This document shows positions 1,759 through 64,000 of a DNA stretch of 64,000 nt, piece after piece. The stretch's first letter is position 1; each line of letters opens with the position of its first letter. Position numbers and translations under genes: made by a program. The notes below the pieces were generated by a model. That model worked only from the letters and a program-made list of their open reading frames with translations, searched no databases and was not told where the DNA came from. Source of the DNA: an uncultured Actinomycetes bacterium (lineage in GTDB: Bacteria; Actinomycetota; Actinomycetes; S36-B12; UBA10799); the NCBI GenBank assembly GCA_964556255.1, contig CAZKVQ010000009.1, positions 582 to 64,581 on the forward strand. The letters run 5' to 3'.

Positions 1759-2373
1759 TCAGTTGGTGACGTAGGTGCTCGGGTCGCCGGAACCGAACCC
1801 GCTCGCGTAGGCGCTCGCGTCAGGTGGGCACTTGGCATCAACGGCGGCGGACAGGTCGCTGCTCAGTTGCTGCACCCCGGGCGTGTTGGCAGCTGCCAGG
1901 GCCTCTTGGATCTGCTCGGGCGACTGGCCCTTGGCGAAGCCGTCCTTGATGATCGCGGAGAGGGTGGCGAATTCAGCCAGATAGACCTGCGAGGAGGCGG
2001 GTGCAGACGCCCCCAATTTGGCAACCACGGCCGTGGCCGCGGTCTTGGCGTCGTCCAGCGCCTTCAGCGCCGCGGCACCCTGATCACTGGAAAGGTCGAG
2101 ACCGGCCACCAGCGTGCCAAGATCGAGCTTGTCCGCGTCAGATCGGATGATCTGGCAGTCGATCTTCGCCTGAATCTCGGCAGATGCCGAGGCGAGGCCG
2201 ACGCCTGCCGGGTCGGGACTGGCGGTAGTGGCGGTGGCAGTCGGAGTGGGGCTCGCGGAGACCGTCGCCGAGTTCGTTGAGGTACTTGACGCGCCGCCGC
2301 TGGAGCACCCGAGCAGCACCGATGCGGGCACCGCTGCTAGTAGGAGCAGTGCGGCGAACCTGGATCTGTCCAT
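1759..2373 (-). CDS. putative secreted lipoprotein (unknown function)
   Basis: 204-aa ORF. The N-terminus MDRSRFAALLLLAAVPASVLLGCSSGG has a signal peptide with a lipobox (LLGC). A Ser/Thr/Ala/Pro-rich linker follows. Confidence 0.7.
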   Translation of the reverse strand: MDRSRFAALLLLAAVPASVLLGCSSGGASSTSTNSATVSASPTPTATATTASPDPAGVGLASASAEIQAKIDCQIIRSDADKLDLGTLVAGLDLSSDQGAAALKALDDAKTAATAVVAKLGASAPASSQVYLAEFATLSAIIKDGFAKGQSPEQIQEALAAANTPGVQQLSSDLSAAVDAKCPPDASAYASGFGSGDPSTYVTN

Positions 2374-2433
2374 GACGGAGTTGTATCAGAAGATGAGGGG
2401 CTGGCATCGTCGTCCCCGCGCAAGGGCGGGGAA

Positions 2434-3873
2434 TTACCGTCCGCAGATGTCGTCAGCCGCGGTTCGGACCCCGGCGCCAGCGACCGCCGCCGACTGCTTG
2501 TCCGTGGTGGTGCCGGCAGCGTCGGGGCCCGAAGCGAGCGAGACCACCGGTTGCAGGCCGCGGTAGTCCGTGCCCAATTGGATCCGGTAGGTGCCGCCGA
2601 GACCTACTAGCGGCTTGGCGGCTGCGCCTGGCAACGAGGCCTTGACGGTGTCCAGGGCCGAGTCGTACGTCGGGTCGTAGAAGATCGTCGTTGCCGTCTC
2701 GGGAGGATCACCACCATTGTCATATCGCGAGTTGACGATGTAACCCGCCGCCTCGAAGTCGTCAGCGGCGCGGCCGAGCAGGTCTTTGTCGCCGCTGGCG
2801 TTGACGAGTTGCACGTCGATCTTCGACGTTGGGATCTCCACCGGAGTCGGCTTGCCGGCGGCCGTATCGGGAAGCCGCAGAGGCGTGTCCGACTGCATCG
2901 CATCGAACAGGGCTCCCGCCCGCGCGTCCCAGGTGAGTACCGAACCGATGCCGTCGATGGTCTGCTCCGACGACACCGGAACTGTCTGGAACGTCACCTT
3001 GTCGGGGCTGGTTGTGCGGGCGCGCTGAGACAGGTCGAACAACCCGGCGGTATCCAAGCCCGGATCGGTGGTGAGGCTGCCGAACAGCGCGTTCGTGACG
3101 TCGGTGAACTTGGCCGGGTTGAGTAGCACTCCCGGGCTGGTGGCACGCTTGAAAGCCGAGGCGAGGAAGGCCTGTTGCCGACGCATGCGGCCGAAGTCGT
3201 CGGTGGGGTCAACTGAGCGAGCACGGACGAAGGCCAACGCGGCCGGGCCATCCAGCGTGCTACGGCCGGCCGGGATGTCGAGCCCCGACAGGCCGTCGGC
3301 GAGTGGGGAAGGGGTACAGACATCGACGCCTTCGAGCGCCGACACCACATTGGAGAAGCCCTCGAAGTCGACCTCTGCGTAGTGGTCAATCCGGACACCG
3401 GTGGCCTTCTCGACGGTGTTGACCACCAGCGGTGCGCCGCCGGCAGCCAGCGCCGAACCGATCTTGCCCATCGCGGCGGGCACCGGCACGCCATCGGCGT
3501 CGGTGTGTGCGGGCAGCTCCACGTAGGAGTCCCGGGGGATGCTCACGACGCCGATCGAACCGTCCGACGACAGATGAAGGAGAACCATCGTGTCGGTGCT
3601 CTTCGGTCCGGTATCGGAGCCAACATGAAGAGTCCGCTGCTGCTCGTCACTGAGTTCAGAGCGGTCGTCGGACCCGACCACCAGAATGTTGGTGCCGCCG
3701 GCCTCAGCCGGCCGCTCCGTCAAGCCTTCGAACGCGTTCACGTGGTTGATCTGGCCGCCGTAGTGGAACGCTGTCGCGTATCCCATACCGCTCAGGGCCA
3801 GCACGACCGCTGCCAGGGCGCCCGCGAGGACGACGTGGGGTCGGGAACGACCCCACCGCGCGAACTTCGCCAC
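2434..3873 (-). CDS. LytR-CpsA-Psr (LCP) family cell-wall glycopolymer ligase with C-terminal LytR_C-like domain
   Basis: LCP core NILVVGSDDRS...STDTMVLLHLSSDGSIGVVSIPRDSYVELP...FDFEGF. One N-terminal TM helix. The start was set at GTG 3873, preceded by AAAGGA. The track ORF extends to 3978, so the start is uncertain. Confidence 0.85.
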   Translation of the reverse strand: MAKFARWGRSRPHVVLAGALAAVVLALSGMGYATAFHYGGQINHVNAFEGLTERPAEAGGTNILVVGSDDRSELSDEQQRTLHVGSDTGPKSTDTMVLLHLSSDGSIGVVSIPRDSYVELPAHTDADGVPVPAAMGKIGSALAAGGAPLVVNTVEKATGVRIDHYAEVDFEGFSNVVSALEGVDVCTPSPLADGLSGLDIPAGRSTLDGPAALAFVRARSVDPTDDFGRMRRQQAFLASAFKRATSPGVLLNPAKFTDVTNALFGSLTTDPGLDTAGLFDLSQRARTTSPDKVTFQTVPVSSEQTIDGIGSVLTWDARAGALFDAMQSDTPLRLPDTAAGKPTPVEIPTSKIDVQLVNASGDKDLLGRAADDFEAAGYIVNSRYDNGGDPPETATTIFYDPTYDSALDTVKASLPGAAAKPLVGLGGTYRIQLGTDYRGLQPVVSLASGPDAAGTTTDKQSAAVAGAGVRTAADDICGR

Positions 3874-4016
3874 ACCCGATCCTTTCGACGGCCATGCGCC
3901 AACATGGGCACGGTCCACTGTAAGGATCGGAAAGCTGTTAGCCGCGCTGCCACGCCCGCCGAGTCCAGGGATCACCACACGAGCGGGGATCGCGGCGGCT
4001 GTTAGGTTCTACTGTC

Positions 4017-5108
4017 ATGACCGTCCCGCCCGCAGTCGCCGATGAAAGTGGTCGGGCCGGCGATGCGGGGAGTCTGTCCCAGCAGTCCGCGGACACCGAG
4101 TTCCCGCCGGTCACGATCTACATGACGGTTCTGGATGAGGAGCGGCACCTCGCGGAGGTCGTGGAACACGCCCAGACGCAGGACTACCCGGGCGAGCTGC
4201 AGATCGTTGTGGCAGTCGGCCCTTGCAGCGACGGAACCCGCGGCATTGCCGAACGCTTGGCCGAAGAGGATCCTCGGATCGTCGTCGTCGACAATCCGAG
4301 CGGCTACATCGCGGCAGGACTGAACCGGGCGCTGGCAGCGGCTCAGCACGAGATCGTCGTTCGGGTTGATGGCCATGCGATGCTCCCGCCGGGTTACGTG
4401 TCGGAGGCGGTCGCCACGTTGCGGGCGACCGGGGCGGACAACGTCGGTGGCATCATGGCGGCTGAGGGCGAGACCGATTTCGAACGCGCGGTTGCCTGTG
4501 CGATGCGGTCCCCGATCGGGGTGGGACGCGCCGCCTTCCACACCGGTGGTGAGCCGGGGGAGGCCCTCACCGTGTACCTGGGTGCTTTTCGGCGAGAAGC
4601 GCAGCAGCGCGCCGGCGGATACGACGAGTCGATGCTGCGCGCGGAGGATTGGGAGCTGAACCATCGGATCCGTTCCAACGGCGGTCTGGTGTGGTTCAAC
4701 CCGCGGATGCAGGTGAGCTACCGCCCACGCCCCAACCTCCGGATGCTCGCACGGCAGTACTTCTTCTACGGACAGTGGCGAAGGGAGATCACCCGCCGAC
4801 ACCGGGAGACCGTGAGTCTCCGGTATCTTGCGCCGCCGGTGCTGGTGAGCATCCTCTCCGCGGGCACGCTGGCAGGCACCGCCGGGACCCTCGGGGGCCC
4901 TCGATGGCTGCGGGCCGGCTGGTTGGCCCCGCTGGGCTACGCCGGCGCGCTGCTGGTCGGATCCGCGGTGACGGGCCGGGATCTACCGTGGCGGATAGCG
5001 GCCAAACTGCCTGCCGTATATGCCACCATGCACTGCGCCTGGGGGGTCGGGTTCCTGACATCGCCGGCGGACCTGTCTACCCGGGATCACGGCCGAGCGG
5101 TGCGCTGA
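4017..5108 (+). CDS. glycosyltransferase family 2 protein with C-terminal membrane helices
   Basis: VTIYMTVLDEERHLAEVVEHAQTQDYPGELQIVVAVGPCSDGT...VVVDNPSG...VRVDGH has the GT-A fold and DxD-type signature. The C-terminus is hydrophobic. Confidence 0.85.
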   Translation: MTVPPAVADESGRAGDAGSLSQQSADTEFPPVTIYMTVLDEERHLAEVVEHAQTQDYPGELQIVVAVGPCSDGTRGIAERLAEEDPRIVVVDNPSGYIAAGLNRALAAAQHEIVVRVDGHAMLPPGYVSEAVATLRATGADNVGGIMAAEGETDFERAVACAMRSPIGVGRAAFHTGGEPGEALTVYLGAFRREAQQRAGGYDESMLRAEDWELNHRIRSNGGLVWFNPRMQVSYRPRPNLRMLARQYFFYGQWRREITRRHRETVSLRYLAPPVLVSILSAGTLAGTAGTLGGPRWLRAGWLAPLGYAGALLVGSAVTGRDLPWRIAAKLPAVYATMHCAWGVGFLTSPADLSTRDHGRAVR

Positions 5109-5129
5109 TCTCGCTCCGATCCGCACCCT

Positions 5130-6011
5130 TCAGACGATCGGTGGCCGGCCGTGCCGGGTCATTTCGAGGATTCCCCGCCACGACAACGGCCGACGCTCGC
5201 CGGGATCGACGTGCCAACCTTCCTGCCAACCCCGGCGCCATTCCGCACGCGAATCCGGGTCCGCACGGTTGCGCCAGCCGAATACCGCACCCCACACCCC
5301 CAGGTAGGCCGGGACGAGGACCCAGGGGAGATTCCGACGTGCCAGCAGCACCCGGTTTCGGGAGTTCATCCGCTGGAACACAGAGTGGCGGGTCGCTGGC
5401 GAAACAGGATGGTAGGTAGTCAGATCGCCCGCGTACCAGACGATGGCGCCGGCGTCCCAGACCCGCCAGGCGAGTTCGATGCCCTCGTGGGCGTAGAGGT
5501 AGGGGGTGCCCCAACCACCCGCCTCCGTGAACAGGGCCCGACGCACCATTACGGCGGCCTCACAGACGTACATCGTCGTCGAAGGTCGTCCAGGGTCGCC
5601 TTTGCGCAGGCGAGGTACCCAGCTGCGCGGGGCAGCGGGGTTGTCCGGGTCGGTGATGCGCGTCTGCACCATGCCGATGTCTGGGTGGGCCCGGAACACC
5701 TCGGCGACCTCGGCCAGCGCCGAAGGGCCGGGAAGCCAGGCGTCGTCGTCGAGGAAGAACAACAGGTCGCCGCGCACGTGGTCAACCCCGGCGTTGCGCC
5801 CGCTGACGCCGACGTTCTCCGGCAGGTGCACCGCTGCGACGCCGGACGGGAGGCCAGTGGGAGCCCAGCCATTTCCAACACAGACGACATCGACCTCGAC
5901 CCCGGTCTGGTTCAGCACTGAGCGCAGCGCACGATCCAACTCGATCGGACGGTTGCCTTGGGTGAGGACGACGACTCCCACGGTCAGGGCGGGCACCTCA
6001 CCTGCCGTCAT
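5130..6011 (-). CDS. glycosyltransferase family 2 protein (rhamnosyltransferase/WbbL-like)
   Basis: The C-terminal 293 codons of the 5130..6743 ORF start at ATG 6011 (MTAGEVPALTVGVVVLTQGNRP...FFLDDDAW), a GT2 signature. The ATG overlaps the stop of the upstream gene (ATGA at 6008-6011). The longer track ORF is an Arg/Pro-rich out-of-context extension. Confidence 0.85.
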   Translation of the reverse strand: MTAGEVPALTVGVVVLTQGNRPIELDRALRSVLNQTGVEVDVVCVGNGWAPTGLPSGVAAVHLPENVGVSGRNAGVDHVRGDLLFFLDDDAWLPGPSALAEVAEVFRAHPDIGMVQTRITDPDNPAAPRSWVPRLRKGDPGRPSTTMYVCEAAVMVRRALFTEAGGWGTPYLYAHEGIELAWRVWDAGAIVWYAGDLTTYHPVSPATRHSVFQRMNSRNRVLLARRNLPWVLVPAYLGVWGAVFGWRNRADPDSRAEWRRGWQEGWHVDPGERRPLSWRGILEMTRHGRPPIV

Positions 6012-19469: not shown

Positions 19470-19727
19470 ATGAACGAACTCGATATCTTCCCCCTCGACG
19501 AGACAGAGGAGATGGGTTGGCAGGAGCGCTCGTTGTGCGCCCAGACCGACCCGGAAGCGTTCTTCCCCGAGAAGGGCGGCTCCACCCGCGAGGCGAAGAA
19601 GGTATGCATGTCGTGCGAGGTTCGGATGGAGTGCCTCGAATATGCACTGGCGAATGACGAGCGGTTCGGGATCTGGGGTGGCCTCTCCGAGCGGGAGCGT
19701 CGGCGACTCAAGAAGCAGGCGGTCTGA
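19470..19727 (+). CDS. whiB: WhiB family transcriptional regulator (WhiB2/WhmD-type, Fe-S)
   Basis: CAQTDPEAFFPEKGGSTREAKKVCMSCEVRMECLEYALANDERFGIWGGLSERERRRL has four Cys, GIWGG and a basic tail. Synteny matches whiB2. Confidence 0.92.
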   Translation: MNELDIFPLDETEEMGWQERSLCAQTDPEAFFPEKGGSTREAKKVCMSCEVRMECLEYALANDERFGIWGGLSERERRRLKKQAV

Positions 19728-19819
19728 CACTGGCCCCGAGCCCGCGACCGAGCTCACGTCGGCGCCGTCAGCGGGACCGCAGGGGTCGTGGGCTTCGCGG
19801 CCCGCTGCTACCGGCAACG

Positions 19820-20155
19820 ATGCCCGGGTCGCTCAGTCGGGCTCAGCGCTTCGACGCTGCGGCAGAGCAGGCAGCGGCCCGGCTGCTGCGGCTCAATCGG
19901 GAACTCGACGGGGTAGACGTGGTCGTGGAGGATGTGCCACGGGTCGGTCCCCGCGCCACCGAGGTACCGCTCGGTCGGGTCCTCAGGCAGACGGCGAAGC
20001 CGCAGCTGGTGCTGCACCGGCGAGCGATCGAGTCCCGGGGAGCCGACTCCGACGCCCAGGTAGCGCTCCTCCGAGATGTCCTCGCGGAGCTCGCTGGAGA
20101 CCTGCTCGGGCGTGAGCCGGCGGCGCTGGACCCCGCATATCCCCGGGAGTCTTGA
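19820..20155 (+). CDS. Rv3259-like 'metallopeptidase family' (zincin-like fold) protein lacking the HExxH motif
   Basis: RAQRFDAAAEQAAARL...VDVVVEDVP...LVLHRRAIESRGADSDAQVALLRDVLAELAGDLLG resembles the small zincin-like family found next to whiB2. At the position of HEIAHH it reads AELAGD. An alternative antisense ORF was examined and judged less likely. Confidence 0.6.
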   Translation: MPGSLSRAQRFDAAAEQAAARLLRLNRELDGVDVVVEDVPRVGPRATEVPLGRVLRQTAKPQLVLHRRAIESRGADSDAQVALLRDVLAELAGDLLGREPAALDPAYPRES

Positions 20156-20205
20156 TCGGCGCGCCGTAACGATGGTTCGCGTGGTCGCTGGGTAACCTCT
20201 GCCCT

Positions 20206-20583
20206 GTGAGTAATCAGCGTGCGTGCTCGAAGCCGTCGTGCAATTCAGGTGCCGTTGCGACCCTCACCTATGTCTACTCGGACTGCACGGCAGTACTCGG
20301 CCCACTGGCCACAACGTCAGAGCCGCATACCTATGACCTGTGCGAGGCCCACGCGGAGAGGCTCACGGCCCCTCGCGGCTGGGATGTCGTGAGGCTGGAC
20401 TTCGACCCGGCGGACTTCCTTCCGTCGACGGATGACCTCGAGGCCCTCGCCGACGCTGTCAGAGAGGCTGCCCGTCCTCGGCCGGAAGTGGCGGTGGAGG
20501 AGCGGGAGCGGGAACTTGTGCCGGCAGGGACGGTCGAGGTCGGTCGCAGAGGGCACTTGCGGGTGCTGCGCTCGGTCGACTGA
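20206..20583 (+). CDS. DUF3499 domain-containing protein
   Basis: CSKPSCNSGAVATLTYVYSDCTAVLGPLATTSEPHTYDLCEAHAERLTAPRGWDVVRL is the characteristic DUF3499 N-terminus. It occupies the conserved position between whiB and the phosphomannomutase gene. Confidence 0.8.
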   Translation: MSNQRACSKPSCNSGAVATLTYVYSDCTAVLGPLATTSEPHTYDLCEAHAERLTAPRGWDVVRLDFDPADFLPSTDDLEALADAVREAARPRPEVAVEERERELVPAGTVEVGRRGHLRVLRSVD

Positions 20584-53825: not shown

Positions 53826-54302
53826 ATGCCCAGGGAACGAGGACGAAAGCTCATCGCGCAGAACCGCAAAGCGCGCCATGACTACGAGATCCTCGACACC
53901 TACGAGGCCGGAATCGTGTTGGTGGGGACGGAGGTCAAGTCCCTCCGGGCCGGCCGGGCCACGCTTGCCGACGGCTACGCGACGGTGGACGACGGGGAGG
54001 TGTGGCTCCGAGGGGTGCACATCCCCGAATACGACCCGGGAACCTGGACCAACCACGAGCCTCGTCGCACCCGCAAGTTGCTGCTGCACAAGGCCGAGAT
54101 CGCCAAGCTGATCGGCAAGACTCGGGAGGGCGGGCTAACACTCGTTCCGCTGTCGCTCTACTTCAAGGACGGCAAGGCGAAAGTCGAACTCGCGTTGGGC
54201 CGCGGCCGTCGCTCCTACGACAAGCGTCAGGCGATCGCGGAACGGGAGTCCAAACGCGAAGCCGACCGGGCGTTGGGCCGCGGCCGGAAAGGTATGGACT
54301 GA
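53826..54302 (+). CDS. smpB: SsrA-binding protein SmpB
   Basis: [32 protein letters not shown]...[12 protein letters not shown]...[30 protein letters not shown]. Confidence 0.93.
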
Positions 54303-54334
54303 CTTCGACTCCTCGGGCCGGGCATGATGACCCC

Positions 54335-55861
54335 ATGACATCTGTACGCGAGGCCGTCTTCGATCTGCTCCAACGCCATGGGATGACGACCGTATTCGGT
54401 AACCCGGGCTCAACTGAGATGCCCTTCCTGAACGAGATGCCTGACGGCTTCCGCTACATCCTGGGGTTGCAGGAGGGCGCAGTCGTGGCGATGGCTGACG
54501 GCTATGCCCAAGCGACCGCGGGGCCGACCCTGGTGAATCTGCATTCGGGTCCGGGCGTGGGAAACGCGATGGGCAGCATCATCAACGCTCGCGCCAACAG
54601 GTCGCCACTGGTGATCACTGCCGGTACGCAGGTGAGACCCATGCAGGCCATGGAGGCTTGGTTGACCAATGTTCGGGCAACCGAACTGCCCCAGCCAGCG
54701 GTGAAGTGGAGCGGGGTAGCCGCGCGGGCAGCCGACACTCCCGCCGTGCTCGCCCGGGCCATCCACGAGGCATCGTTGCCGCCCACGGGCCCGGTGTTCG
54801 TGTCGCAGCCGATGGACGACTGGGCGGCCGATGTGACGCCGGCCGAGAGCAAGTACCTGAACACTCGGAAAGTCGTCAGCGCCAGTGGCTTCGATCAGGC
54901 GACGGCCGCAGCGGTTGCGGCGCGGATCGATGACGCGTCAGCGCCATTGCTGGTGCTCGGTTCACCGCTCGACAGCGAAGCAGGCTGGCGTGATTCGGTG
55001 GCGCTGGCGGAGAAGGCGGGGATGGCGGTGATGTTGGCGCCGGTGGAGGGCCGGTGGAGTTTCCCCGGCTGGCACCCCAACTTCCGGGGCACGTTGTTGC
55101 CGGCGATCGCGGCGGCCGCGGCACAACTCGCAGCGCATGATCTGGTCGTGGTCGTCGGTGCCCCAGTCTTGAAGTACTACCCCTACATGCCCGGCGAGTT
55201 GCTGCCCGAGGGGACGGAGTTGGTGCAGATCACCGACGACCAGGGCGAAGCCTCTCGGGCACCGATGGGTGACGCCTACATCGGCGACCCCACGGCCGCG
55301 GTGGCCGGCCTGCTCGCTGCCGTCTCAGCACGTCCGTCACGAGTCCCGGGCCCCCCGCAGGTGCCCGCGGTCGCTCCAAGCTCGTCACCGCTGTCGCCTG
55401 CCGACGCCTACTCGACGATCGCCGCCGTGATGCCGGACGACGTGGCTGTCGTGTCGGAATCGCCGTCGAATCTCATGGTCATGCTGAACCATTGGCGGCC
55501 CTCGCATCCGCGCAGCTTCTTCTTCTCCGGCAGTGGTGGCCTCGGCTTCGGCACATCCGCCACGGTAGGTGTCCAGCTGGGCCTACCCAACCGGCCGGTC
55601 GTCGGCATTCTCGGAGACGGCGCATTTCAGTATTCGGTTCAGGGCTTGTACACGGCCGCGCTGTACAACATCCCGGCCACATTCCTAGTTCTGCGCAACA
55701 GTCAGTACGCCATCCTCAAGTGGTTCGGTGAGGTGGAGGGTGCCCCGGGTCGAACGGTTTCGGATTCGGCAGCCTTGGCTGATGCCCTGCCCGAGGCGCT
55801 CGGCGCCGAGGGCCCGCGGCTCATTCAGGTGGATATCGACGGGTCACGGGAGGTCATGTAG
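54335..55861 (+). CDS. thiamine-pyrophosphate-dependent decarboxylase (benzoylformate decarboxylase-like)
   Basis: From ATG 54335: VFGNPGSTEMPF, TPP-binding GDGAFQY...N motif region (GILGDGAFQYSVQGL...LVLRNSQY). The upstream part of the 54002 track ORF overlaps smpB in another frame. Confidence 0.85.
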   Translation: MTSVREAVFDLLQRHGMTTVFGNPGSTEMPFLNEMPDGFRYILGLQEGAVVAMADGYAQATAGPTLVNLHSGPGVGNAMGSIINARANRSPLVITAGTQVRPMQAMEAWLTNVRATELPQPAVKWSGVAARAADTPAVLARAIHEASLPPTGPVFVSQPMDDWAADVTPAESKYLNTRKVVSASGFDQATAAAVAARIDDASAPLLVLGSPLDSEAGWRDSVALAEKAGMAVMLAPVEGRWSFPGWHPNFRGTLLPAIAAAAAQLAAHDLVVVVGAPVLKYYPYMPGELLPEGTELVQITDDQGEASRAPMGDAYIGDPTAAVAGLLAAVSARPSRVPGPPQVPAVAPSSSPLSPADAYSTIAAVMPDDVAVVSESPSNLMVMLNHWRPSHPRSFFFSGSGGLGFGTSATVGVQLGLPNRPVVGILGDGAFQYSVQGLYTAALYNIPATFLVLRNSQYAILKWFGEVEGAPGRTVSDSAALADALPEALGAEGPRLIQVDIDGSREVM

Positions 55862-56356: not shown

Positions 56357-56733
56357 GGGGGTGACAGGTTTCGACACCGGTTGCCGTAAAGAGAGAAGCG
56401 AGCCGAGGACCCACGGTTATCTCGCAAACGATCCGTGGAAAACAACAAGTGCCGATACAAAGCGCACTGACTTCGCTCTCGCTGCCTAAGCAGCTGAGCA
56501 TTTAAGAAGTCCGTCAGACCGGGGATGTCTCCGACCCGGACCCTGGCGTCGACTAGGAGACTCGCCGAAGTCCCCCGCTCACGGGGGGACAAGGGACATC
56601 AATCAGTGAGGTAGGCCGCGTTCCCCGTTGTGCCACACGAATCGGGGAGGCCGAATCGCATCAACGTGGCTGCGCTCGGAGAAGTCTCGGAACAGTGCCG
56701 ATGGACGCGGGTTCGATTCCCGCCACCTCCACC
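56357..56733 (+). ncRNA. ssrA: tmRNA (transfer-messenger RNA, SsrA)
   Basis: The 5' GGGGGTG pairs with the 3' CACCTCC (including G3:U), followed by ACC. T-arm GGGTTCGATTCCC. The internal tag ORF GCC GAT ACA AAG CGC ACT GAC TTC GCT CTC GCT GCC TAA (56451-56489) encodes ADTKRTDFALAA, with the actinobacterial ...ALAA ending. A TACAAT box lies at 56334-56339 upstream. Confidence 0.9.
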
Positions 56734-58303
56734 CGACCGGACGGTATACGCACACCGGTCCGTTTGAGGAGCCAGCCCCCGCGGGGGCTGGCTCCTTTGT
56801 CGTGTCTGGGGTGGGGCGGGTAACTAACAGTGTTACGGCGACCTCGGGTGTCGGGATGCGCAGTATCGGCGTTGCGTCATGGCCGTCTATGTCAATACGT
56901 TCGATGAGAAGTTCCAGCAGCTGGGAGCGCAGTCTCGTGTTGCCGTTGCGCAGGGCGTCAGCGAATTTTGCTGCGAGCCCCTCAAAGTCCGTAGCGCGAG
57001 GACAGGCTGGTTCTTCTTGGAGTTCGTATTCAAGTTCGGTGATGCGAAGCTTGACGGCGGCCTCTTGGGCGAGCAGTTCGTCGTGGCGGGCTGTGAACAG
57101 CCGTGCCGGCAGGTCACCGCTTTCGTAGTCGGTGATGTAGCGCGCCATTTTCGCACTTAGTGATGCTGCCCGATGCCGCGCGGCTTTCAACTCGCTTGCA
57201 TGCTGGGCGCGTTCGGCGGCGCCGTGGTCGTGCTGGGTGGCGAACGCTTCGGCGAGCAAGTTGGTATCGGCCAGCGTGTTGAGGATGATGTCGATGATTT
57301 GCGTTTCGAGCGCGTCGGCGCGTACCCGGGTGCCGGGGCAGGACCGTTTGCGGGTCTTCAGTGACGATACGCACGAGTAGTAGCGGTAGCGCCCGGCTTT
57401 GGAGTGTGAGCTTGTGCCGGCGATGGCTCCTCCGCAGCTGCAGTAAAGGACCCCGGATAGTAGGTAGTCCGACGATGCACGGCGGGCGGCATCTGACCGG
57501 GTGCGTTTGGCGCGCAGGGCGGCCGCGGTCGCGAACATGGCCTCGTCGATGAACGCGCTGTGGGCCCCGGGCAGCCAGGCGCCTTTGTAGCGGATTTCAC
57601 CGATGTAGGTGCGGTTGCCGAGAATGTCGGCAAGTCTGGTGGAGGCCCAAAGTCCGCCGCGTGATGTTCGCAACCCGTCAGCGTTCAGTTCGTTAGCAAG
57701 TGCGACTAGTCCGACCTCGCCGGTGGTGTAGCGGGTGAAGATGCGTTCGACGATGGGAAAAGTATCAGCGTCGGTTTCCAGAATCCCAGTGACTTGGTTA
57801 CGCCTCAGCCCGTAGCACGGTACACCGCCGACTTGCAGCCCCCGGCTGGCCTTTGTGGCATTGCCGCGGTTGATGCGTTCGAGGATGCTGCGACGTTCGA
57901 ACTCCGCGAAGATGCTTAGCATCTGCATGAGCATCATTCCGCTGGCGCCTGTCGTGTCAAAAGACTCCGTCGCGGAACGAAACTGCACCCCCACTGCTTG
58001 AAGTCTGCGCACCGTGTCCATCACGTCGGACAGCGACCGTGACCAGCGGTCGAGGCGGTAGACGAGCACGAGGTCGAAGCGCCCAGCTTCCGCGTGCTTC
58101 ATGAGCCGCTGAAATTGGGCCCGGTTCGTGTTCTTGCCGGAGACGCGTTCGACGTAGTCGGCTGCGGCGACCATGCCCGGCTGGGATTCGATGAACCGTT
58201 GGAGAGACGCCAGCTGGGCGTCAAGGGAGTATGGCTGGTTCTCTTCGCCGGTGGAAGCCCGGCGGTAGGTGGCAACACGGACGACTGTGCTGTCGGTGCT
58301 CAT
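56603..58303 (-). CDS. large serine recombinase (integrase) of the ssrA-adjacent island
   Basis: N-terminal resolvase domain VATYRRASTGEENQPYSLDAQ (catalytic Ser) and LVLVYRLDRWSRS. Recombinase domain. Zn-ribbon CSCGG...YYSCVSS...RSCPG, followed by a coiled coil. The last ~65 codons are antisense to the ssrA terminator and the tmRNA 3' end, so the native C-terminus is probably near 56.8 kb. Confidence 0.9.
   Translation of the reverse strand: MSTDSTVVRVATYRRASTGEENQPYSLDAQLASLQRFIESQPGMVAAADYVERVSGKNTNRAQFQRLMKHAEAGRFDLVLVYRLDRWSRSLSDVMDTVRRLQAVGVQFRSATESFDTTGASGMMLMQMLSIFAEFERRSILERINRGNATKASRGLQVGGVPCYGLRRNQVTGILETDADTFPIVERIFTRYTTGEVGLVALANELNADGLRTSRGGLWASTRLADILGNRTYIGEIRYKGAWLPGAHSAFIDEAMFATAAALRAKRTRSDAARRASSDYLLSGVLYCSCGGAIAGTSSHSKAGRYRYYSCVSSLKTRKRSCPGTRVRADALETQIIDIILNTLADTNLLAEAFATQHDHGAAERAQHASELKAARHRAASLSAKMARYITDYESGDLPARLFTARHDELLAQEAAVKLRITELEYELQEEPACPRATDFEGLAAKFADALRNGNTRLRSQLLELLIERIDIDGHDATPILRIPTPEVAVTLLVTRPTPDTTKEPAPAGAGSSNGPVCVYRPVGWRWRESNPRPSALFRDFSERSHVDAIRPPRFVWHNGERGLPH
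56768..56800 (+). terminator. rho-independent terminator of ssrA
   Basis: Perfect 28-nt palindrome GGAGCCAGCCCCCG/CGGGGGCTGGCTCC (56768-56795), followed by TTTGT. Confidence 0.7.
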
Positions 58304-58969
58304 GTGAGGTGGTGCTCCTCGATGGTGGCGGACGGAGGGCTCGGATGGGTCCGTTGTCCGCTAATTTGCAACCTCCGCAAGCCCTGATGTGTTCCATTGA
58401 GTCGAGCAGCAGCGCGATGCTGCGTACTGCTTCCTGATAGGTTTCCTGGCCCATCGGCACTTTGGTCGCTGTATGGACGTGGATTTCGTTGGTTTGCCGG
58501 CGTCGCGCCGGAGGTCTTGCTTTGGATGGTCTCGTCGTGGATCCCATATCCGTCACAGTGCATGTGGCATCCGATTTTGTCAGTCGCCGATGTCGGTTTA
58601 CCTCGTCTCTACGCCCAGTGGCACATGCGCAAACCCGCGATCGGAGTCTCTTGCACATCGCATCAGCGCAATCCGGAGACCTTGGCCAACGTCGGGCGCA
58701 GGCTGCGGACCTGGATGTCGGGCCCCATCTGCCGAAGACAATTCGCCGGCGCCCCTGCGCCGCGACGGGTGTCGGGGGTTACTGGCAGGGTTACTACTTG
58801 ACGGTCGGTTTCGTGGGAGGACCGTTGCGACAGTGAAACCCCGGTCGAGTCTCAGCCGCGTTGTCGTGTCCCGACTAGGGTCGAACTTCGAGGTGGCTCG
58901 AGGGTCGGTGGTGCGGATTGTCGTTTGGTGGTCAAGACGGTGGAGCGAGTCCAGAGTGGGAGGGGTGAG

Positions 58970-61900
58970 ATGAAACAGAGTCAGCAATCAGGCGAGGCCA
59001 CGCTACGGCCGGGTGCGGTGGTGTCCGGGCTGGCCGGCCCTCAGACGGCGACGATCCTGTCGGTCATCAGGCTGACCGACGACTCGGCGACAGTCGTCTA
59101 CCGCAACGACGAGGGTGCGCTTGACGAGAAGATCGTGTTCGCAGAGCAGCTCGCCGCGATTCGGGAGGTGTCCGCTGGCGCGGCCTTCACCTTCGACGCC
59201 GATCCGGCCTCGTTTTGGCTTGCCGCGGAAGCTCGTCGGATGCGCCTGGCGTTCCTGTTCGATCCGCAGTCGGCGTTGGGCACCTCTGACGTCGACCCGC
59301 TTCCCCACCAGTTGAGGGCCGTCTACCAGGAGATGCTGCCCCGACAGCCGCTGCGCTTCGTCCTCGCAGACGACCCGGGTGCAGGCAAGACAATCATGGC
59401 TGGGCTGTTCATCAAGGAGCTGCTGTTGCGCGGTGACGCGTCCAACGTTCTCGTCATCGCACCGGGCTCGCTGGTCGACCAGTGGCAGGATGAGCTGTCG
59501 GCCAAGTTCGGACTGGACTTCCAGATCCTGACCAAAGACCTGGTCGCCGGGAGTGGGAACCCGTTTTCCCGCGGAGGGCTATGGCTCGCGCGCCTTGACG
59601 TTCTGGCGCGCAACTCTGAGAACATCCAGGACAAAGCCTCAGAGGTTGACTGGGACTTGATCGTCGCCGACGAGGCCCACAAACTGTCGGCATCTGTGTG
59701 GGGCGGGGAGGTGAAAAAGACCAAGCGCTACCAGATGGCCGAACGGCTCGGCTCTGCGCGCAATCTGCTGCTCATGACGGCGACGCCGCACTCGGGCAAA
59801 GAGGAGCAGTTCCAGTTGTTCATGGCGCTGCTGGACTCCGACCGTTTCGAAGGTGTGCCACGGGAGGGCACCCGCCGGGTGGACGTGTCCGACCTCATGC
59901 GCCGCATGATCAAAGAGGAGCTGCTGACCTTCGATGGCACCCATCTGTTCCCCGAGCGCCGCTCCTACACCGCGCGCTATCCGCTGTCTGGCCCGGAACG
60001 GGATCTGTATGTGGCGGTCTCGGACTATGTGCGCGACCAGATGAACCTTGTCGCCCAACTCGCCGAGGACGGCAAGCGCCGCGCATCGGTTGGTTTCGCG
60101 TTGACCACGCTGCAGCGCCGACTCGCCTCGAGTCCGCGTGCGATCCATCGCTCGCTGGAGCGCCGACTGCGCAAGTTGACCGACCAACTCGACGAGGTTC
60201 GCAGTGGCGGCGACATCACCGCGCTGTCCACCCCTGTGGTAATCGACGCTGACGACCTCGATGAACTGCCCGACGATGAGCTCGAGGCGCTGGAGGACGA
60301 AGCCGCGGCAGGAGCCTTCGCCGCCCGCACGGCCGAGCAGCTTGAAGCCGAGATCGCCGTGGTGGCTCGGCTGGTGGATCAGGCCGCCGCGGTGCGCCAC
60401 TCGCCGACTTACTCCAAATGGGATCGGCTGCGTGACACTCTCGACGACGCCCCGTTCATGCGCGACGGCGCTGGGCAGCGGCGCAAGGTGATCATTTTCA
60501 CCGAGCACAAGGACACCCTTGATGACCTGACCGAGCGACTGCGCGACTTCATCGGCCGCGACGACGCGGTCGTCACGATCCACGGTGGGACCCGCCGGGA
60601 GGACCGAAAGAAGGCCCAGGAGACGTTCCGCAGCGACGACGGGTGCTACTTCCTCGTCGCCACCGACGCCGCCGGGGAAGGTGTGAACCTGCAAAACGCC
60701 CACCTGGTCATCAACTACGACCTGCCGTGGAATCCCAACCGCATCGAGCAGCGCTTCGGCCGGGTGCACCGCATCGGCCAGCAGGAGGTGTGCCACATGT
60801 GGTCTCTGGTGGCCGCCGACACCCGCGAAGGGATGGTGTATGAGCGGCTGTTGGAGAAACTCGAACAGCAACGCCAAGCCCTGGGCGGGCGAGTATTCGA
60901 CGTCCTCGGTCAGGTATTCGACGGGACGTCCTTGCGTGACCTGATGATGGACGCCATCCGGTACGGCGACGACCCGGCCCGGCGCACCGAACTGCTCACC
61001 GTTATCGACGCCCACGTCGGCGACGGCATCGCGGAGGCCCTCTCCGAGGAGCAACTCGTGCCGACCATGATGGCCACCAGCGAAATCGACCAGGCTCGCC
61101 GAGAGATGGAACGGGCTGAGGCCGCGCGCCTGCAGCCCTATCACGTGGAGGCATTCTTCTCCGCCGCGTTCGCTGCAGCCGGCGGACACCTGCGTCCGCG
61201 TGAATCCCACCGTTACGAGATTCGTTCGGTTCCCTCCGTCATCAAAGACCAGGACCGCATCACGGGCTCCGGCATGCCTGTGGTCAACACGTACTCCCGA
61301 GTCGCGTTCGACCCGCGCAACCTGCGTATTGACGGCCACACCCAGGTCGCGGCACTGCTGCACCCCGGGCACCCGTTGATGGCCGCTCTCATGTCTGTCA
61401 CCACCGACCGTCACGGCGACGCGCTGCGCCACGGCGCGATCCTCGCCGACCGCTCAGACGCATCTCTAGACCCGTACGTCGTGTGCCTGCTCGAACACGA
61501 CGTCACCGACGCCCGTCGCGGCCGCGATGCTCAGCCCCACGTCGTGTCGCGACGTGCCCAATACGTGCGCCTGGATGTCGACGGCACCATCGCGCCTCTG
61601 GGTGGTACACCGCTGCCCAACCTCGAACCGCCCACCGACGCCGAACTGGTCCAGGCACGGATCATCGCCGGCCAGGACTGGTGTACCGCCGCCACGCTCG
61701 AGGACGCTGTGGTCAACCACGCCGCCGCAACCCTCGCCCGCGAACACTCCGAGGACATCACTGCCTCCACGAACGCCCGTATCGACAAGACCACCGCGCT
61801 CGTACGCGACCGGCTGACAAGGGAGATCAACTATTGGGACTCCCGAGCAGCCGAACTGCGTGAGGCCGAGCACGCCGGCAAGCAGACCCGGCTGCCCGCC

Positions 61901-62458
61901 TCCCAACTCCAGCAGCGCGCCGACGAACTGTCCCATCGCCTGGACCGCCGCCTGGCCGAGTTGGAATCAGAGAGAGCGCTTTCCGCGCGTCCGCCGCGCA
62001 TCACTGGTGCATGCCTGGTCGTGCCGCAGGGATGGTTCGAGGCCCTCACCGACCCAGAGGGTGCCGCCGCGCATGCCAAGGAAACCGCCCGCGTGGAGCG
62101 CCTCGCTGTCGAGGCGGTCCTCGCAGTTGAACGCGCCCACGGACATCGCCCGGTGGAGATGCCGCATAACAACCCGGGCTACGACATCGAATCCGACACG
62201 CCCGAGGGCCTCGACTTCATCGAGGTCAAGGGTCGCGTCGAAGGGGGCGACGAGTTTGTGCTCACCCGAACCGAGGCGTCGACCGCCCTGAATAAGGGCC
62301 GCCGCAGCGTCCTGGCACTGGTGCGCGTCGCCGCCGACGACACGACGACGGTGCGCTACCTGCGCCAGCCGATCACCCACCCGCTCGATCCGCGTGCACG
62401 GTCGGTCACCTTCGAATGGGATGCGATGTGGGACGACGGCCAGGAGATGACACCGTGA
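58970..62458 (+). CDS. SNF2-family helicase-related protein with C-terminal DUF3883 (PD-(D/E)xK-like) domain
   Basis: ATG 58970 follows GGGAGGGGTGAG. Motif I DDPGAGKT, motif II VADEAHKL (DEAH), motif III LLMTATPHSG, helicase-C LVATDAAGEGVNLQ and QRFGRVHRIGQ. The C-terminus GYDIESDTPEGLDFIEVKGRVEGGDEFVLTRTE is DUF3883/restriction-endonuclease-like. Confidence 0.9.
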   Translation: MKQSQQSGEATLRPGAVVSGLAGPQTATILSVIRLTDDSATVVYRNDEGALDEKIVFAEQLAAIREVSAGAAFTFDADPASFWLAAEARRMRLAFLFDPQSALGTSDVDPLPHQLRAVYQEMLPRQPLRFVLADDPGAGKTIMAGLFIKELLLRGDASNVLVIAPGSLVDQWQDELSAKFGLDFQILTKDLVAGSGNPFSRGGLWLARLDVLARNSENIQDKASEVDWDLIVADEAHKLSASVWGGEVKKTKRYQMAERLGSARNLLLMTATPHSGKEEQFQLFMALLDSDRFEGVPREGTRRVDVSDLMRRMIKEELLTFDGTHLFPERRSYTARYPLSGPERDLYVAVSDYVRDQMNLVAQLAEDGKRRASVGFALTTLQRRLASSPRAIHRSLERRLRKLTDQLDEVRSGGDITALSTPVVIDADDLDELPDDELEALEDEAAAGAFAARTAEQLEAEIAVVARLVDQAAAVRHSPTYSKWDRLRDTLDDAPFMRDGAGQRRKVIIFTEHKDTLDDLTERLRDFIGRDDAVVTIHGGTRREDRKKAQETFRSDDGCYFLVATDAAGEGVNLQNAHLVINYDLPWNPNRIEQRFGRVHRIGQQEVCHMWSLVAADTREGMVYERLLEKLEQQRQALGGRVFDVLGQVFDGTSLRDLMMDAIRYGDDPARRTELLTVIDAHVGDGIAEALSEEQLVPTMMATSEIDQARREMERAEAARLQPYHVEAFFSAAFAAAGGHLRPRESHRYEIRSVPSVIKDQDRITGSGMPVVNTYSRVAFDPRNLRIDGHTQVAALLHPGHPLMAALMSVTTDRHGDALRHGAILADRSDASLDPYVVCLLEHDVTDARRGRDAQPHVVSRRAQYVRLDVDGTIAPLGGTPLPNLEPPTDAELVQARIIAGQDWCTAATLEDAVVNHAAATLAREHSEDITASTNARIDKTTALVRDRLTREINYWDSRAAELREAEHAGKQTRLPASQLQQRADELSHRLDRRLAELESERALSARPPRITGACLVVPQGWFEALTDPEGAAAHAKETARVERLAVEAVLAVERAHGHRPVEMPHNNPGYDIESDTPEGLDFIEVKGRVEGGDEFVLTRTEASTALNKGRRSVLALVRVAADDTTTVRYLRQPITHPLDPRARSVTFEWDAMWDDGQEMTP

Positions 62459-64000
62459 CCCGCAAAATCATCGAGGTGGCGCTGCCTCTGGAACAGATCA
62501 ATGCCGCCGCGAAAGCGGACAAGGACCGAAAGACTGGCACCATCCGCAACCTGCACAAATGGTTCGCCCCCGCACCACTGCCAGCCTGGCGGGCGCTGCT
62601 GTTCGCTGCCCTCGTCGACGACCCGCAAGACGACAACCGCCGCGTCTACCTGCTCGACCTGATCAAGCGATTGGTGGCCAACGGAGCCGACCTGCCCGAC
62701 GCCGACACCCTCGCCGAGGCCCGGCAGGTGATAGTCGACCAGTTCCCGGATGGAGTACCCGCCGTCATGGACCCGTTTTGTGGAGGGGGTTCCACCCTGG
62801 TGGAGGCTCAACGACTGGGCCTGCCAACCTTCGGATCCGACTTGAACCCGGTGCCGGTGCTCATCACCCGCACCCTGACCGAACTGCTGCCGAAGGTGTA
62901 CGGTCAGCAGCCGCTTCATCCCGAGACCGAAGCCGACCGCGACCAAGCCAAGAAGGGAACCAAAGGCCAAATCCCACTCGACTCCAGAGACCGGCCTCTC
63001 ATCTACTCGGGCTTCGACGGGCTCATCCGCGACGTCACCTACTACGCCGAACAGGTCCGCGACCGGGCATGGGAACAGTTGAAGGACAACTACCCATCTG
63101 AGCCTGGCGAGACGCCGATCGCGTGGCTGTGGGCGCGTACCGTGACCTGCCCGAACCCGGCCTGCGGCATCGAGACCGTCCTGTCAACCTCGTGGTGGCT
63201 GTCGAAGAAGAAAGGCGACCTCGCCTGGATCTCTCCCCGCGTCGAGGACGGCCAAGTCGTGCTCGACGTGGTTAGTGGGCAGACGTCGGGCGAGGCGCCG
63301 GCGTCGCCGAAGGTCGGACGCGGCAGGTTCGCCTGCGTGGCCTGCGCGGCCACTTTGGGAGAGAACTACCTACGTGCCGAAGGCTCCGCGGGAAACATGC
63401 GCATTCGCATGACGGCGGTCGTCGCGGAGACCGAGAAGGGGCGACTTTACCGCGCCGCGACTGCCGCAGATGTGCCGACGGTCCCGACCTCGCCAGATGC
63501 GACCGGCGTTGGTGACGTCCCCATCGTGAAGTGGCGCTCGGTAAATGTCCCCGACTACGGCATCGACACCTGGGACAAGCTATACACCCCACGCCAACTG
63601 CTCACCCTCACTACGTTCGCGGACCTGGTCGCCGCGACCTACGAGCGCATTCTTGACGACGGCGGGTCCCGCGAGTGGGCGTCCGCTGTATCAACACTTC
63701 TTGGGTTGGCGGTGGGCCGCCGGGCGCGCTACGGATCCTCGCAATCGCAGTGGCGCCTCCGAAGTTCGGCTAATGCGAAAGCCGAGTCGGTCTATGCCCG
63801 CAATGACCTGCCCATGATGTGGGATTTTGCCGAGACGTTCTTTGATGGTGGGTCAGTCGGCGATTGGATGGACGCCTGCACGGGCGTCTTCAGATCGCTG
63901 GCATACGCTGTGCCAGGGAGCGGTTCGGCTGTACGTGGCGATGCGCGTTCCGTTGCCTTGCCTCTTGGGTCGCCGGGGTCTTTGGTAGCCACAGACCCGC
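62455..64000 (+). CDS. DUF1156 domain-containing Zn-ribbon DNA methyltransferase (COG1743-type), 5' 515 codons; continues past window end
   Basis: Hand-translated open frame from GTG 62455 (GTGA overlap with the helicase stop) to 64000, with no stop codon. It begins VTRKIIEVALPLEQINAAAKADKDRKTGTIRNLHKWFAPAPL. SAM motif I is VMDPFCGGGSTLVEAQRLG (62770-62793). The Zn ribbon is CPNPAC...CVAC. The window ends in ...LVATDP, the beginning of a DPPY-type motif IV. The ORF is absent from the track because it is open-ended. Confidence 0.85.
   Translation, partial: MTRKIIEVALPLEQINAAAKADKDRKTGTIRNLHKWFAPAPLPAWRALLFAALVDDPQDDNRRVYLLDLIKRLVANGADLPDADTLAEARQVIVDQFPDGVPAVMDPFCGGGSTLVEAQRLGLPTFGSDLNPVPVLITRTLTELLPKVYGQQPLHPETEADRDQAKKGTKGQIPLDSRDRPLIYSGFDGLIRDVTYYAEQVRDRAWEQLKDNYPSEPGETPIAWLWARTVTCPNPACGIETVLSTSWWLSKKKGDLAWISPRVEDGQVVLDVVSGQTSGEAPASPKVGRGRFACVACAATLGENYLRAEGSAGNMRIRMTAVVAETEKGRLYRAATAADVPTVPTSPDATGVGDVPIVKWRSVNVPDYGIDTWDKLYTPRQLLTLTTFADLVAATYERILDDGGSREWASAVSTLLGLAVGRRARYGSSQSQWRLRSSANAKAESVYARNDLPMMWDFAETFFDGGSVGDWMDACTGVFRSLAYAVPGSGSAVRGDARSVALPLGSPGSLVATDP

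Follow-up and report, generated by a model that had tools for sequence, protein, structure and literature searches.

Two genes of an Hma-type, restriction-modification-like anti-phage operon on a serine-recombinase element downstream of ssrA in an uncultured actinomycete

The two genes at the end of the analyzed DNA (a stretch of 64,000 nucleotides from an uncultured Actinomycetes bacterium, hereafter the window) make up the first two-thirds of an Hma operon, a restriction-modification-like anti-phage system of the Type-1 BREX-related (BR) class. The family assignment is based on the PADLOC models of HmaA, which is matched end to end with 1345 bits, and of HmaB, which is matched with 307 bits. 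The matches are not due to chance (E = 0 for HmaA). Hma, with the components HmaA, HmaB, and HmaC, was named by Payne et al. in 2021 (PMC8565338), and in 2026, the family was reclassified as a Type-1 DUF499-centred BR system and analyzed in depth (PMC12839542). The initial annotation regarded the cassette as uncharacterised, but the system has a name (PMC8565338), an HmaA protein has been tested (PMC11232893), and the family has been analyzed (PMC12839542). The cassette is thus a typical new copy of a very widespread system, not a novel system type. In contrast, the proposal of a restriction-modification/BREX-like cassette, in which the helicase–nuclease is the likely restriction arm and the DUF1156 protein is the self-marker, is borne out as a reading. 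It is very likely that the locus holds hmaA together with the 5′ portion of hmaB from an Hma/Type-1 DUF499-centred BR system of restriction-modification-like nature, carried on an element downstream of ssrA.

The siting of the cassette by ssrA and a recombinase, as initially annotated, was confirmed using ARAGORN, Rfam, and Pfam. The intact ssrA (tmRNA) gene (56357–56734, + strand), the chromosomal landmark by the insertion, matched Rfam RF00023 with 142 bits over model positions 1–374 of 374. The smpB gene is located at 53826–54302. A large serine recombinase with the Pfam domains Resolvase, Recombinase, and Zn_ribbon_recom is encoded at the edge of the inserted element (56603–58303, − strand). 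It resembles the CcrB/CcrC and XisF families and, over aa 4–450, is about 29% identical to serine integrases of phages. The recombinase reading frame of this small serine-recombinase element runs into ssrA. A non-coding spacer (58304–58969), which presumably holds the promoters, separates the divergently oriented recombinase and hmaA genes. Its ORFs have GC1/2/3 values that stay flat near 0.6 and lack Pfam matches, and the region is not conserved in comparison with the upstream regions of the related loci L067 and L069.

hmaA (58970–62458, + strand; PADLOC and Pfam) encodes an SNF2/DEAH helicase–nuclease fusion, the predicted restriction effector. In the ORF spanning 58925–62458 (+), the best start is the ATG at 58970 after GGGAGG, giving a protein of 1162 aa to which an entry in the public collection (P0001) is 100% identical. 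PADLOC PDLC00659 aligned with aa 12–1153 on model positions 7–1165 of 1176. At the N terminus, aa 17–57 (59018–59140) form a small four-strand β-barrel of the SH3/Tudor-like type in the AF2 model (pLDDT >90). Foldseek matches of this barrel to KOW, Agenet, and ERCC6-L2 Tudor are weak (E ≥ 0.01), and the N-terminal domain of the Type-1 BR helicase has been termed TUDOR (PMC12839542). Judging from the model, the barrel is possibly a reader of DNA or of a modification. The Swi2/Snf2 ATPase core occupies aa ~112–640 (59303–60889), where Pfam detected ResIII/SNF2-rel_dom/DEAD at aa 112–293 and Helicase_C at 502–603 (90.5 bits). Among 42 aligned HmaA sequences, the helicase motifs I (GAGKT, 137–141), II (DEAH, 234–237), III (TATP, 270–273), and VI (QRFGRVHRIGQ, 594–604) are invariant or nearly so. 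The closest solved relative of the core by sequence is RapA (E = 3.5e-35). The following α+β region (aa ~640–906; 60887–61687) is also RapA-like, with Foldseek matches to RapA (8spg/6bog) at E of about 1e-5 over roughly 320 columns, and corresponds to the "inactive REase + alpha/beta" of the literature. In the AF2 model of aa 640–1162 (pLDDT 80.4), DSSP assigned two long coiled-coil-like helices (model residues 268–329 and 338–363) at aa ~907–1002 (61688–61975), ahead of the nuclease; they possibly function as a dimerisation arm.

The C-terminal nuclease of HmaA (aa 1042–1129; 62093–62356) is a PD-(D/E)xK domain of the NOV_C family (PF13020, formerly DUF3883), with a Pfam score of 54.9 bits against a cut-off of 22.1. 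Residues D1072, E1085, K1087, and E1102, including the E1085-V-K1087 signature, show complete or near-complete invariance across these 42 sequences. Their counterparts in Halomonas HmaA (D1084/E1104/K1106/E1121) are important for both nicking and defence, and the isolated nuclease domain of that protein nicks plasmid DNA (PMC11232893). Foldseek related the domain to the Hjc resolvases 1gef and 2wcw (E = 2e-4 to 1e-3; TM(target) = 0.5–0.6). The Swi2/Snf2 motor and the Hjc-like nuclease are intact in sequence, and the nuclease is predicted to be catalytically active. The Pfam domains and conserved motifs agree with the initial description of a 1162-aa SNF2/DEAH helicase with a C-terminal DUF3883 module, and the profile HMM searches recommended there support both the DUF3883 (NOV_C) and the DUF1156 assignments above their cut-offs.

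The stop codon of hmaA (TGA, 62456–62458) overlaps the GTG start of hmaB at 62455, with AGGAGA located 8 nt upstream of the GTG. This GTGA overlap (62455–62458), already recognized in the first reading of the sequence, also occurs in the relatives L067, L069, and L001, and the two genes are translationally coupled. The visible 5′ 57% of hmaB (62455–64000, + strand; PADLOC and Pfam) encodes a DUF1156 DNA methyltransferase of the N6-adenine type (DPPY). The window stops at codon 515 of the gene, within motif IV (...VATDP), and full-length HmaB relatives consist of 896–906 aa. PADLOC PDLC00661/00660 matched with 307/303 bits at model positions 135–576 of 973. The helical/basic DUF1156 segment at aa 9–58 (62479–62628; PF06634, 45.6 bits, cut-off 24) has a clade-specific HKWFAPAP in place of the general HLWWARRP. 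Motif I for AdoMet binding (DPFCGGGS, aa 106–113; 62770–62793) contains D-P-F-x-G-G-G residues that are invariant in 54 of 54 HmaB homologues. The first two codons of motif IV (D-P) lie at 63994–63999, and in 53 of 54 aligned relatives, P-Y comes straight after the position of the last codon of the window to complete DPPY (relatives read PY(F/Y)D). Alignment and Pfam thus confirm the DUF1156 methyltransferase with motif I and a terminal TDP that had been noticed at the window edge.

The central insert between motifs I and IV (62794–63993) is the predicted target-recognition domain (TRD) based on its divergence. Identity to the HmaB of L067 falls from 94–98% at aa 1–150 to 38–64% at aa 300–515, while the HmaA proteins of the two loci share 87% identity, a contrast that a specificity domain would be expected to show. 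The insert contains a four-Cys cluster (C232, C237, C294, and C297; 63148–63345), whose pattern is present in all of the 108 actinobacterial homologues and in 21 of 54 diverse ones. The cluster had been described as a CxxC...CxxC ribbon, which is correct for the second pair (CVAC) but not for the first, which is C-x4-C (CPNPAC).

The closest relatives, whose HmaA proteins are 85–87% identical to the present one, have a tightly coupled hmaA–hmaB–hmaC operon, with GTGA and TGATG junctions in L001, L067/L068, and L069. Their HmaC proteins consist of HEPN_Swt1 and a DUF499 AAA+ ATPase, and have Rx4H, Walker A (GGGKT), and Walker B motifs. The initial annotation expected DUF499 and DUF3780 partners beyond the window. 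The former is supported by the relatives, as it is encoded directly downstream in every close relative, whereas the annotated operons of these relatives contain no DUF3780, which marks the Type-2 BR/MANTIS systems with a PLD-helicase. In a survey of 66 species-representative HmaB loci, HmaA was found upstream in 39 of the 56 loci with room for it (17 of 56 lacked an upstream same-strand HmaA), and HmaC was found downstream in 36 of the 51 with room for it. The source contig (65,292 bp) extends no more than about 1.3 kb past the window, and a complete hmaB needs about 1.2 kb beyond it.

The mechanism of MANTIS/Gao_RL, the sister Type-2 BR system, was described in a 2026 preprint (10.64898/2026.09.23.753747). 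In MANTIS, the DUF499 ATPase serves as the loader that brings the DUF1156 methylase to DNA. This methylase hemimethylates a short asymmetric site at adenine and governs modification as well as restriction, and restriction requires the helicase–nuclease. MtsC, the homologue of HmaB, combines an α-group core with a central TRD as the determinant of specificity (10.64898/2026.09.23.753747). Here, we propose an analogous scheme for the present locus. HmaC would load HmaB at the target motif, and host sites would carry N6-adenine methylation. Unmethylated sites on incoming DNA, recognized by HmaB/HmaC, would license HmaA for ATP-driven translocation and for cleavage by its C-terminal nuclease, and the HEPN RNase part of HmaC would act as a second, abortive-type effector. 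For a methylated motif, a need for HmaC, and cleavage of DNA by the full-length HmaA protein, the scheme is extrapolated from MANTIS, whose effector (PLD nuclease) and co-factor (DUF3780) differ. With hmaC outside the view and hmaB visible over 57% of its length, this copy is at most putatively complete and active.

Alternatively, HmaA may be an autonomous helicase–nuclease that senses a phage-specific feature (replication intermediates or modified DNA) independently of methylation, with HmaB and HmaC being dispensable, regulatory, or separate. In 2024, Halomonas HmaA alone was shown to reduce T4 propagation in E. coli, an effect that needed both the nuclease residues and helicase motif VI, and it was non-toxic in the unmethylated host; prior growth of T4 on cells expressing HmaB did not let the phage escape, and hmaB or hmaC is absent nearby in about 15–20% of HmaA homologues (PMC11232893). 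The surveyed HmaB loci without an upstream HmaA also fit this idea. Neither the non-toxicity of the lone protein nor the absence of escape is predicted by simple methylation-gated restriction. The latter would, however, follow from a dependence of HmaB on HmaC like that of MtsC on MtsA, and a methylase dependent on an AAA+ loader would explain the negative result of the HmaB-only experiment. The junction coupling of all three genes in the closest relatives speaks for co-function and fixed stoichiometry, the fast-evolving HmaB insert resembles a specificity determinant, and MANTIS restriction needs all components, including the AAA+ loader of the methylase (10.64898/2026.09.23.753747). We consider an autonomous HmaA unlikely. 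It is quite improbable that the copy is an incomplete or decaying, non-functional remnant that has lost hmaC or has a disrupted hmaB. The position of hmaC outside the view, the mobile element, and the finding of an identical HmaA on record but not of a full-length identical HmaB are compatible with decay, but both visible frames are uninterrupted and have a normal GC content by codon position (GC3 0.77–0.81), the catalytic motifs are all intact in the alignments, and the missing HmaB record is more simply explained by the contig end. We tentatively suggest that Type-1 BR/Hma may not be a simple MANTIS copy but a two-effector (DNA and RNA) methylation-gated system, carried here on a serine-recombinase element. 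The Tudor-like barrel of HmaA could replace the DUF3780 co-activator or read the methyl mark, the Hjc-like nuclease on the coiled-coil arm could cut only where two motors meet, and an abortive layer at the RNA level could come from the HEPN RNase of HmaC.

As to the identity of the system, MANTIS/Gao_RL (Type-2 BR), which the list of DUF499 and DUF3780 partners had implied, is scarcely credible. The α-group DUF1156 methylase with a central TRD, the DUF499 AAA+ partner (in the relatives of the present locus), the SF2 helicase–nuclease effector, and the restriction-modification-like logic are shared. The PADLOC matches to DUF1156_MTase (29 bits) and PLD_Helicase (93 bits, helicase lobe only) are weak, and the NCBIfam scores for DUF1156_antiphage (53.7 against a cut-off of 1000) and phospholipD_antiphage (153.5 bits against 1100, helicase lobe only) are far below the thresholds. 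DUF3780 and a helicase with an N-terminal PLD/HKD nuclease are marks of Type-2 BR/MANTIS (PMC12839542; 10.64898/2026.09.23.753747). The MANTIS effector lacks the N-terminal barrel. HmaA has no PLD/HKD (PLDc) domain in Pfam, but has the barrel and a C-terminal PD-(D/E)xK nuclease, and the MANTIS identity is refuted at the level of helicase architecture. Furthermore, MANTIS requires the small DUF3780 protein MtsB, which is not annotated in the coupled operons of the relatives, and the HEPN fusion on the ATPase is a Type-1 trait. A fragment of DISARM (DrmD and DrmMI) or of Type-3 BREX/Type-3 BR is likewise highly improbable. Type-3 BREX (BrxC, PglXI, and BrxHII) and DISARM pair a methylase with an ATPase and have a homologous Swi2/Snf2 helicase, as indicated by the PADLOC scores of HmaA for DrmD (365 bits) and BrxHI/BrxHII (288–306 bits) and by NCBIfam DISARM_DrmD (348.7 bits). 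However, all of these scores are far under the 1345 bits for HmaA, DISARM_DrmD is below its cut-off of 610, and the loci of the relatives have no DrmA/B/C, PglZ, BrxA/B, or iSTAND genes. Type-3 BR helicases lack a nuclease fusion (PMC12839542), whereas HmaA carries its own nuclease.

RapA, the E. coli RNA polymerase-associated Swi2/Snf2 ATPase, is the closest structure to HmaA by sequence and, after the helicase core, by fold, but it has neither a nuclease nor a methylase partner and functions in transcription, not defence. Halomonas meridiana HmaA, the only one of the two HmaA proteins with experimental testing, shares the Pfam architecture (SNF2-rel_dom, Helicase_C, and NOV_C; PMC11232893) and the D/E-x-K/E nuclease residues. 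The K-to-E spacing is 15 residues in both, while the D-to-E spacing is 13 residues here and 20 in the Halomonas protein, and in the Halomonas locus, Septu lies embedded between the two genes hmaA and hmaB. Such embedded genes occur in ~63–66% of Hma loci, and the present compact copy has none between the two genes. In other respects, the present copy is no different in kind from Hma/Type-1 BR systems: HmaA has the same domain order (N-terminal barrel, Swi2/Snf2 core, RapA-like region, and C-terminal PD-(D/E)xK nuclease), HmaB has DUF1156, motif I, the insert, and DPPY, the gene order is A to B, and the relatives have a HEPN–DUF499 third gene. The present actinobacterial clade is distinguished from Hma in general by the variant DUF1156 motif and the four-Cys cluster in the insert. 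The compact, insertion-free actinobacterial operon, either at this locus or at L067, would be a convenient model for the two-effector idea.

The last part of the window contains two overlapping genes in the same direction. hmaA (plus strand) starts at the ATG at 58970, which is preceded by GGGAGG, and ends with the stop codon at 62456–62458; this reading frame of 1162 aa lies inside a longer ORF (58925–62458). hmaB starts at a GTG at 62455 with AGGAGA 8 nt upstream, the junction between the two genes reads GTGA, and the hmaB frame is open up to the window end at 64000 (515 codons). The GC content at the third codon position is 0.81 in hmaA and 0.77 in hmaB versus ~0.6 in the ORFs of the preceding spacer (58304–58969), and this pattern is that of real genes. 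The Pfam domains and the junction uphold the initial annotation as to the observed pair, an SNF2 helicase–DUF3883 protein and a DUF1156 methyltransferase joined by a GTGA overlap.

In HmaA, Pfam places ResIII, SNF2-rel_dom, and DEAD at aa 112–293, Helicase_C at aa 502–603, and NOV_C (PF13020, formerly DUF3883) at aa 1042–1129. An alignment of 42 full-length homologues from widely different phyla showed complete or almost complete conservation of helicase motifs I (GAGKT), II (DEAH), III (TATP), and VI (QRxGRxHRxGQ) and of the nuclease residues Asp1072, Glu1085, Lys1087, and Glu1102. The AlphaFold2 model of aa 640–1162 (pLDDT 80) resembled the region that follows the helicase core in Escherichia coli RapA (Foldseek, E about 1e-5) and, in the nuclease part, Hjc resolvases (E 2e-4 to 1e-3), with two long helices between the RapA-like part and the nuclease part. 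By sequence, too, RapA is the solved protein nearest to HmaA. The model of aa 1–125 (pLDDT 78) contains a confident small β-barrel at aa 17–57. By Foldseek, the best matches to this barrel, none with an E value below 0.01, are of the KOW, Agenet, and Tudor types and include the Tudor domain of an Snf2 protein, ERCC6-L2; the barrel is putatively Tudor-like.

The DUF1156 domain of HmaB is located at aa 9–58 and motif I (DPFCGGGS) at aa 106–113. Among 54 HmaB homologues, D-P-F-x-G-G-G is invariant. The last residues in the window are VATDP, which are followed by P-Y-(Y/F)-D in 53 of the 54 relatives; the window therefore cuts hmaB within the catalytic motif IV, DPPY. Both motifs had been read correctly from the sequence, including the start of motif IV at the window edge. 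As full-length relatives have 896–906 aa, ~57% of hmaB is visible. Of the zinc ribbon described earlier as CxxC...CxxC, the second pair is indeed C-x2-C, but the first is C-x4-C. This Cys cluster occurs in all 108 actinobacterial homologues and in only 21 of the 54 diverse ones, and is a candidate zinc site. At aa 21–41 of HmaB (window 62515–62580), the actinobacterial clade has DKDRKTGTIRNLHKWFAPAP in place of an otherwise highly conserved DUF1156 segment, and most members of that clade read WFAPMP. In MtsC, the DUF1156 methylase of the sister system MANTIS, the equivalent loop near the N terminus inserts into the minor groove of DNA (10.64898/2026.09.23.753747).

HmaB was compared (window 62455–63999) with its counterparts in the closest relatives by HmaA, L067 (13483–16188) and L069 (7595–10303). 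The identity with L067 HmaB is 94–98% over aa 1–150 and 38–64% over aa 300–515, whereas HmaA of L067 is 87% identical. A steady catalytic frame with a fast-changing insert has the look of a target-recognition domain. Divergence of the insert while HmaA remains 85–87% identical in the two loci looks like specificity switching via replacement or rapid divergence of this region. An identical HmaB was absent from the records in a protein search with the fragment (best match 72%), and an exact search of metagenome contigs with the last 41 nt of the window gave no match. A PDB sequence search with HmaB and the HmaC relatives gave no hits, so sequence comparison reveals no solved structure of an Hma methylase or ATPase.

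The locus belongs to Hma (helicase/methylase/ATPase, also Type-1 BR), a very common defence family that is already known, and is a typical actinobacterial member with a compact layout. HmaA matched the PADLOC HmaA model end to end (E = 0, 1345 bits), and the visible part of HmaB scored 303–307 bits; the restriction–modification (RM)/BREX-like defence role proposed before was right in outline. The runner-up helicase models for HmaA were DrmD (365 bits), BrxHI/II (288–306 bits), and PLD_Helicase (93 bits), and the NCBIfam equivalogs for DISARM DrmD, the DUF1156 anti-phage protein, and the PLD anti-phage helicase were all far under their cut-offs. Assignments to Type-2 BR/MANTIS, DISARM, and BREX were dropped based on these scores and the lack of marker genes in the loci of the relatives. 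The label "uncharacterised" is outdated: Hma was named in 2021 as a candidate system with 1,638 instances in 26 phyla (PMC8565338), and HmaA was tested in 2024 (PMC11232893).

The expected third gene, hmaC, is outside the view. An identical HmaA is recorded on a 65,292-bp NCBI contig, and a complete hmaB needs ~1.2 kb past 64000, which leaves any third gene a few codons at most. The order hmaA–hmaB–hmaC was found in L067/L068 (HmaA 87% identical), L069 (85%), and L001 from Thermocatellispora tengchongensis, the closest species-representative genome. Their A/B junctions read GTGA, and the B/C junctions are TGATG or a 2-nt gap. HmaC of these relatives consists of HEPN_Swt1 (Rx4H) and DUF499 with Walker A (GGGKT) and Walker B (hhhDE) motifs, and that of L001 scored 919 bits on PADLOC HmaC. 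The expectation of a DUF499 partner was therefore correct. Among 66 loci from species-representative genomes, a same-strand HmaA gene precedes hmaB in 39 of the 56 with room for it, and an HmaC gene follows in 36 of the 51 with room. Gaps of 0.8–8 kb in most of those loci correspond to the known embedding of other genes; defence genes are often embedded between Hma genes (10.1101/2024.01.29.577857). Several distant relatives (L027, L028, L030, L032–L035, L040, L041, L053, L057, and L062) have, some kilobases from the first methylase gene, a second HmaB-like one in opposite orientation, often without an adjacent HmaA; these loci may represent a different BR subtype or a duplicated or inverted methylase arrangement.

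The flanks of L067 and L069 are unlike each other and unlike those of the window, which indicates that the cassette moves as a unit. In L067, a DUF429 gene (19661–20563, plus strand) directly follows hmaC, and a DNA_methylase (C5) and HATPase_c_3 pair (1446–5484, minus strand) lies upstream; in L069, a PLDc_2 protein is encoded upstream (2476–3699, minus strand). These surroundings are defence-like, and the differing flanks fit the picture of a mobile cassette located in defence islands.

The location on a mobile island next to ssrA is supported by an intact tmRNA gene (56357–56734, plus strand; Rfam 142 bits, full model), an adjoining recombinase, and a slight dip in G+C content (0.625–0.633 at 56–60 kb versus about 0.65–0.70 elsewhere in the window). 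smpB (53826–54302) is upstream of ssrA. Within 53826–55861 (plus strand), a TPP-enzyme ORF is listed from a GTG at 54002 and overlaps smpB by 300 nt; because its Pfam match begins only at aa 114, translation probably starts further on, past the end of smpB. Directly past the ssrA terminator hairpin (56767–56796) is a divergent large serine recombinase gene (56603–58303, minus strand). Its frame runs antisense past the end of the serine-integrase homology (aa 4–450) at window 56603–56950, reads through the hairpin and ~130 nt at the 3′ end of the tmRNA gene, and stops at 56603. The part of the gene that encodes the recombinase C terminus seems to span the junction of element and chromosome, which is expected at about 56797–56950; integration may therefore alter the protein tail. 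The far end of the element is beyond the window, and the ssrA 3′ end, whose duplication would be the sign of an att repeat, occurs in the window only once.

A non-coding spacer of 666 bp separates the recombinase gene from hmaA. A promoter scan upstream of hmaA found nothing on the plus strand, and alignment with the regions upstream in L067 and L069 showed no conservation and no conserved promoter or regulator. Small ORFs at 58221–58987 were rejected as genes (no Pfam hit, flat codon-position GC). The TGA of one 166-codon ORF (58473–58973, plus strand) overlaps the hmaA start codon (ATGA) and mimics translational coupling. This ORF is probably not a gene: its codon-position GC is flat (0.60/0.66/0.60), Pfam finds no domain in it, and the regions upstream of hmaA in L067 and L069 hold no counterpart.

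The best template for how the locus most likely works is MANTIS, for which experiments exist. In MANTIS, the DUF499 ATPase MtsA loads MtsC onto DNA, MtsC hemimethylates adenine at a short asymmetric site and directs modification as well as restriction, restriction requires all components and both ATPase activities, and the proposed cutter is the helicase–nuclease, favoured by inverted unmethylated sites (10.64898/2026.09.23.753747). Here, we propose by homology that HmaC would load HmaB and that host DNA would carry m6A marks. Unmarked sites in incoming DNA would then license HmaA for translocation and cutting by its Hjc-like nuclease, and the HEPN domain of HmaC may serve as a back-up RNase, as proposed for the family (PMC12839542). 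For Hma, the existence of a methylated motif, the part played by HmaC, and cutting of both DNA strands are predictions.

Halomonas meridiana hmaA alone lowered T4 propagation in E. coli without toxicity, dependent on helicase motif VI and the nuclease residues, and its isolated C-terminal domain nicks plasmid DNA (PMC11232893). Phage propagated on cells that express HmaB showed no escape (PMC11232893). Neither the nontoxic defence by HmaA alone nor the lack of escape fits a simple RM model, and the former keeps alive the possibility that HmaA acts autonomously. If HmaB depends on HmaC for its activity, as MtsC does on MtsA, the lack of escape is what one would expect.

The anatomy of HmaA and HmaB agrees with the description of Type-1 BR, in which the helicase has a TUDOR domain, a Swi2/Snf2 core, an inactive REase with an α/β region, and, at its C terminus, an active REase; the methylase begins with DUF1156 and carries its TRD as an insert in the core, and HEPN is a frequent fusion partner of the ATPase (PMC12839542). 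The Type-2 helicase has an N-terminal PLD/HKD nuclease and no N-terminal barrel, and DUF3780 is a hallmark present in 98% of Type-2 taxa (PMC12839542). This Type-2 system is Gao_RL, now MANTIS (10.64898/2026.09.23.753747). Unlike its helicase, HmaA has no PLD domain in Pfam, and DUF3780 is therefore not expected at the locus; the DUF3780 partner predicted earlier was wrong, and none is annotated in the operons of L067/L068, L069, and L001. The genes should be named hmaA and hmaB (partial), with hmaC expected on the adjoining contig. The locus is one further, rather clean example of a defence family known from thousands of taxa. Compact Actinomycetota copies without embedded genes are possible minimal constructs, which could show if the AAA+-loaded hemimethylation of MANTIS also holds for the PD-(D/E)xK- and HEPN-bearing Type-1 branch.
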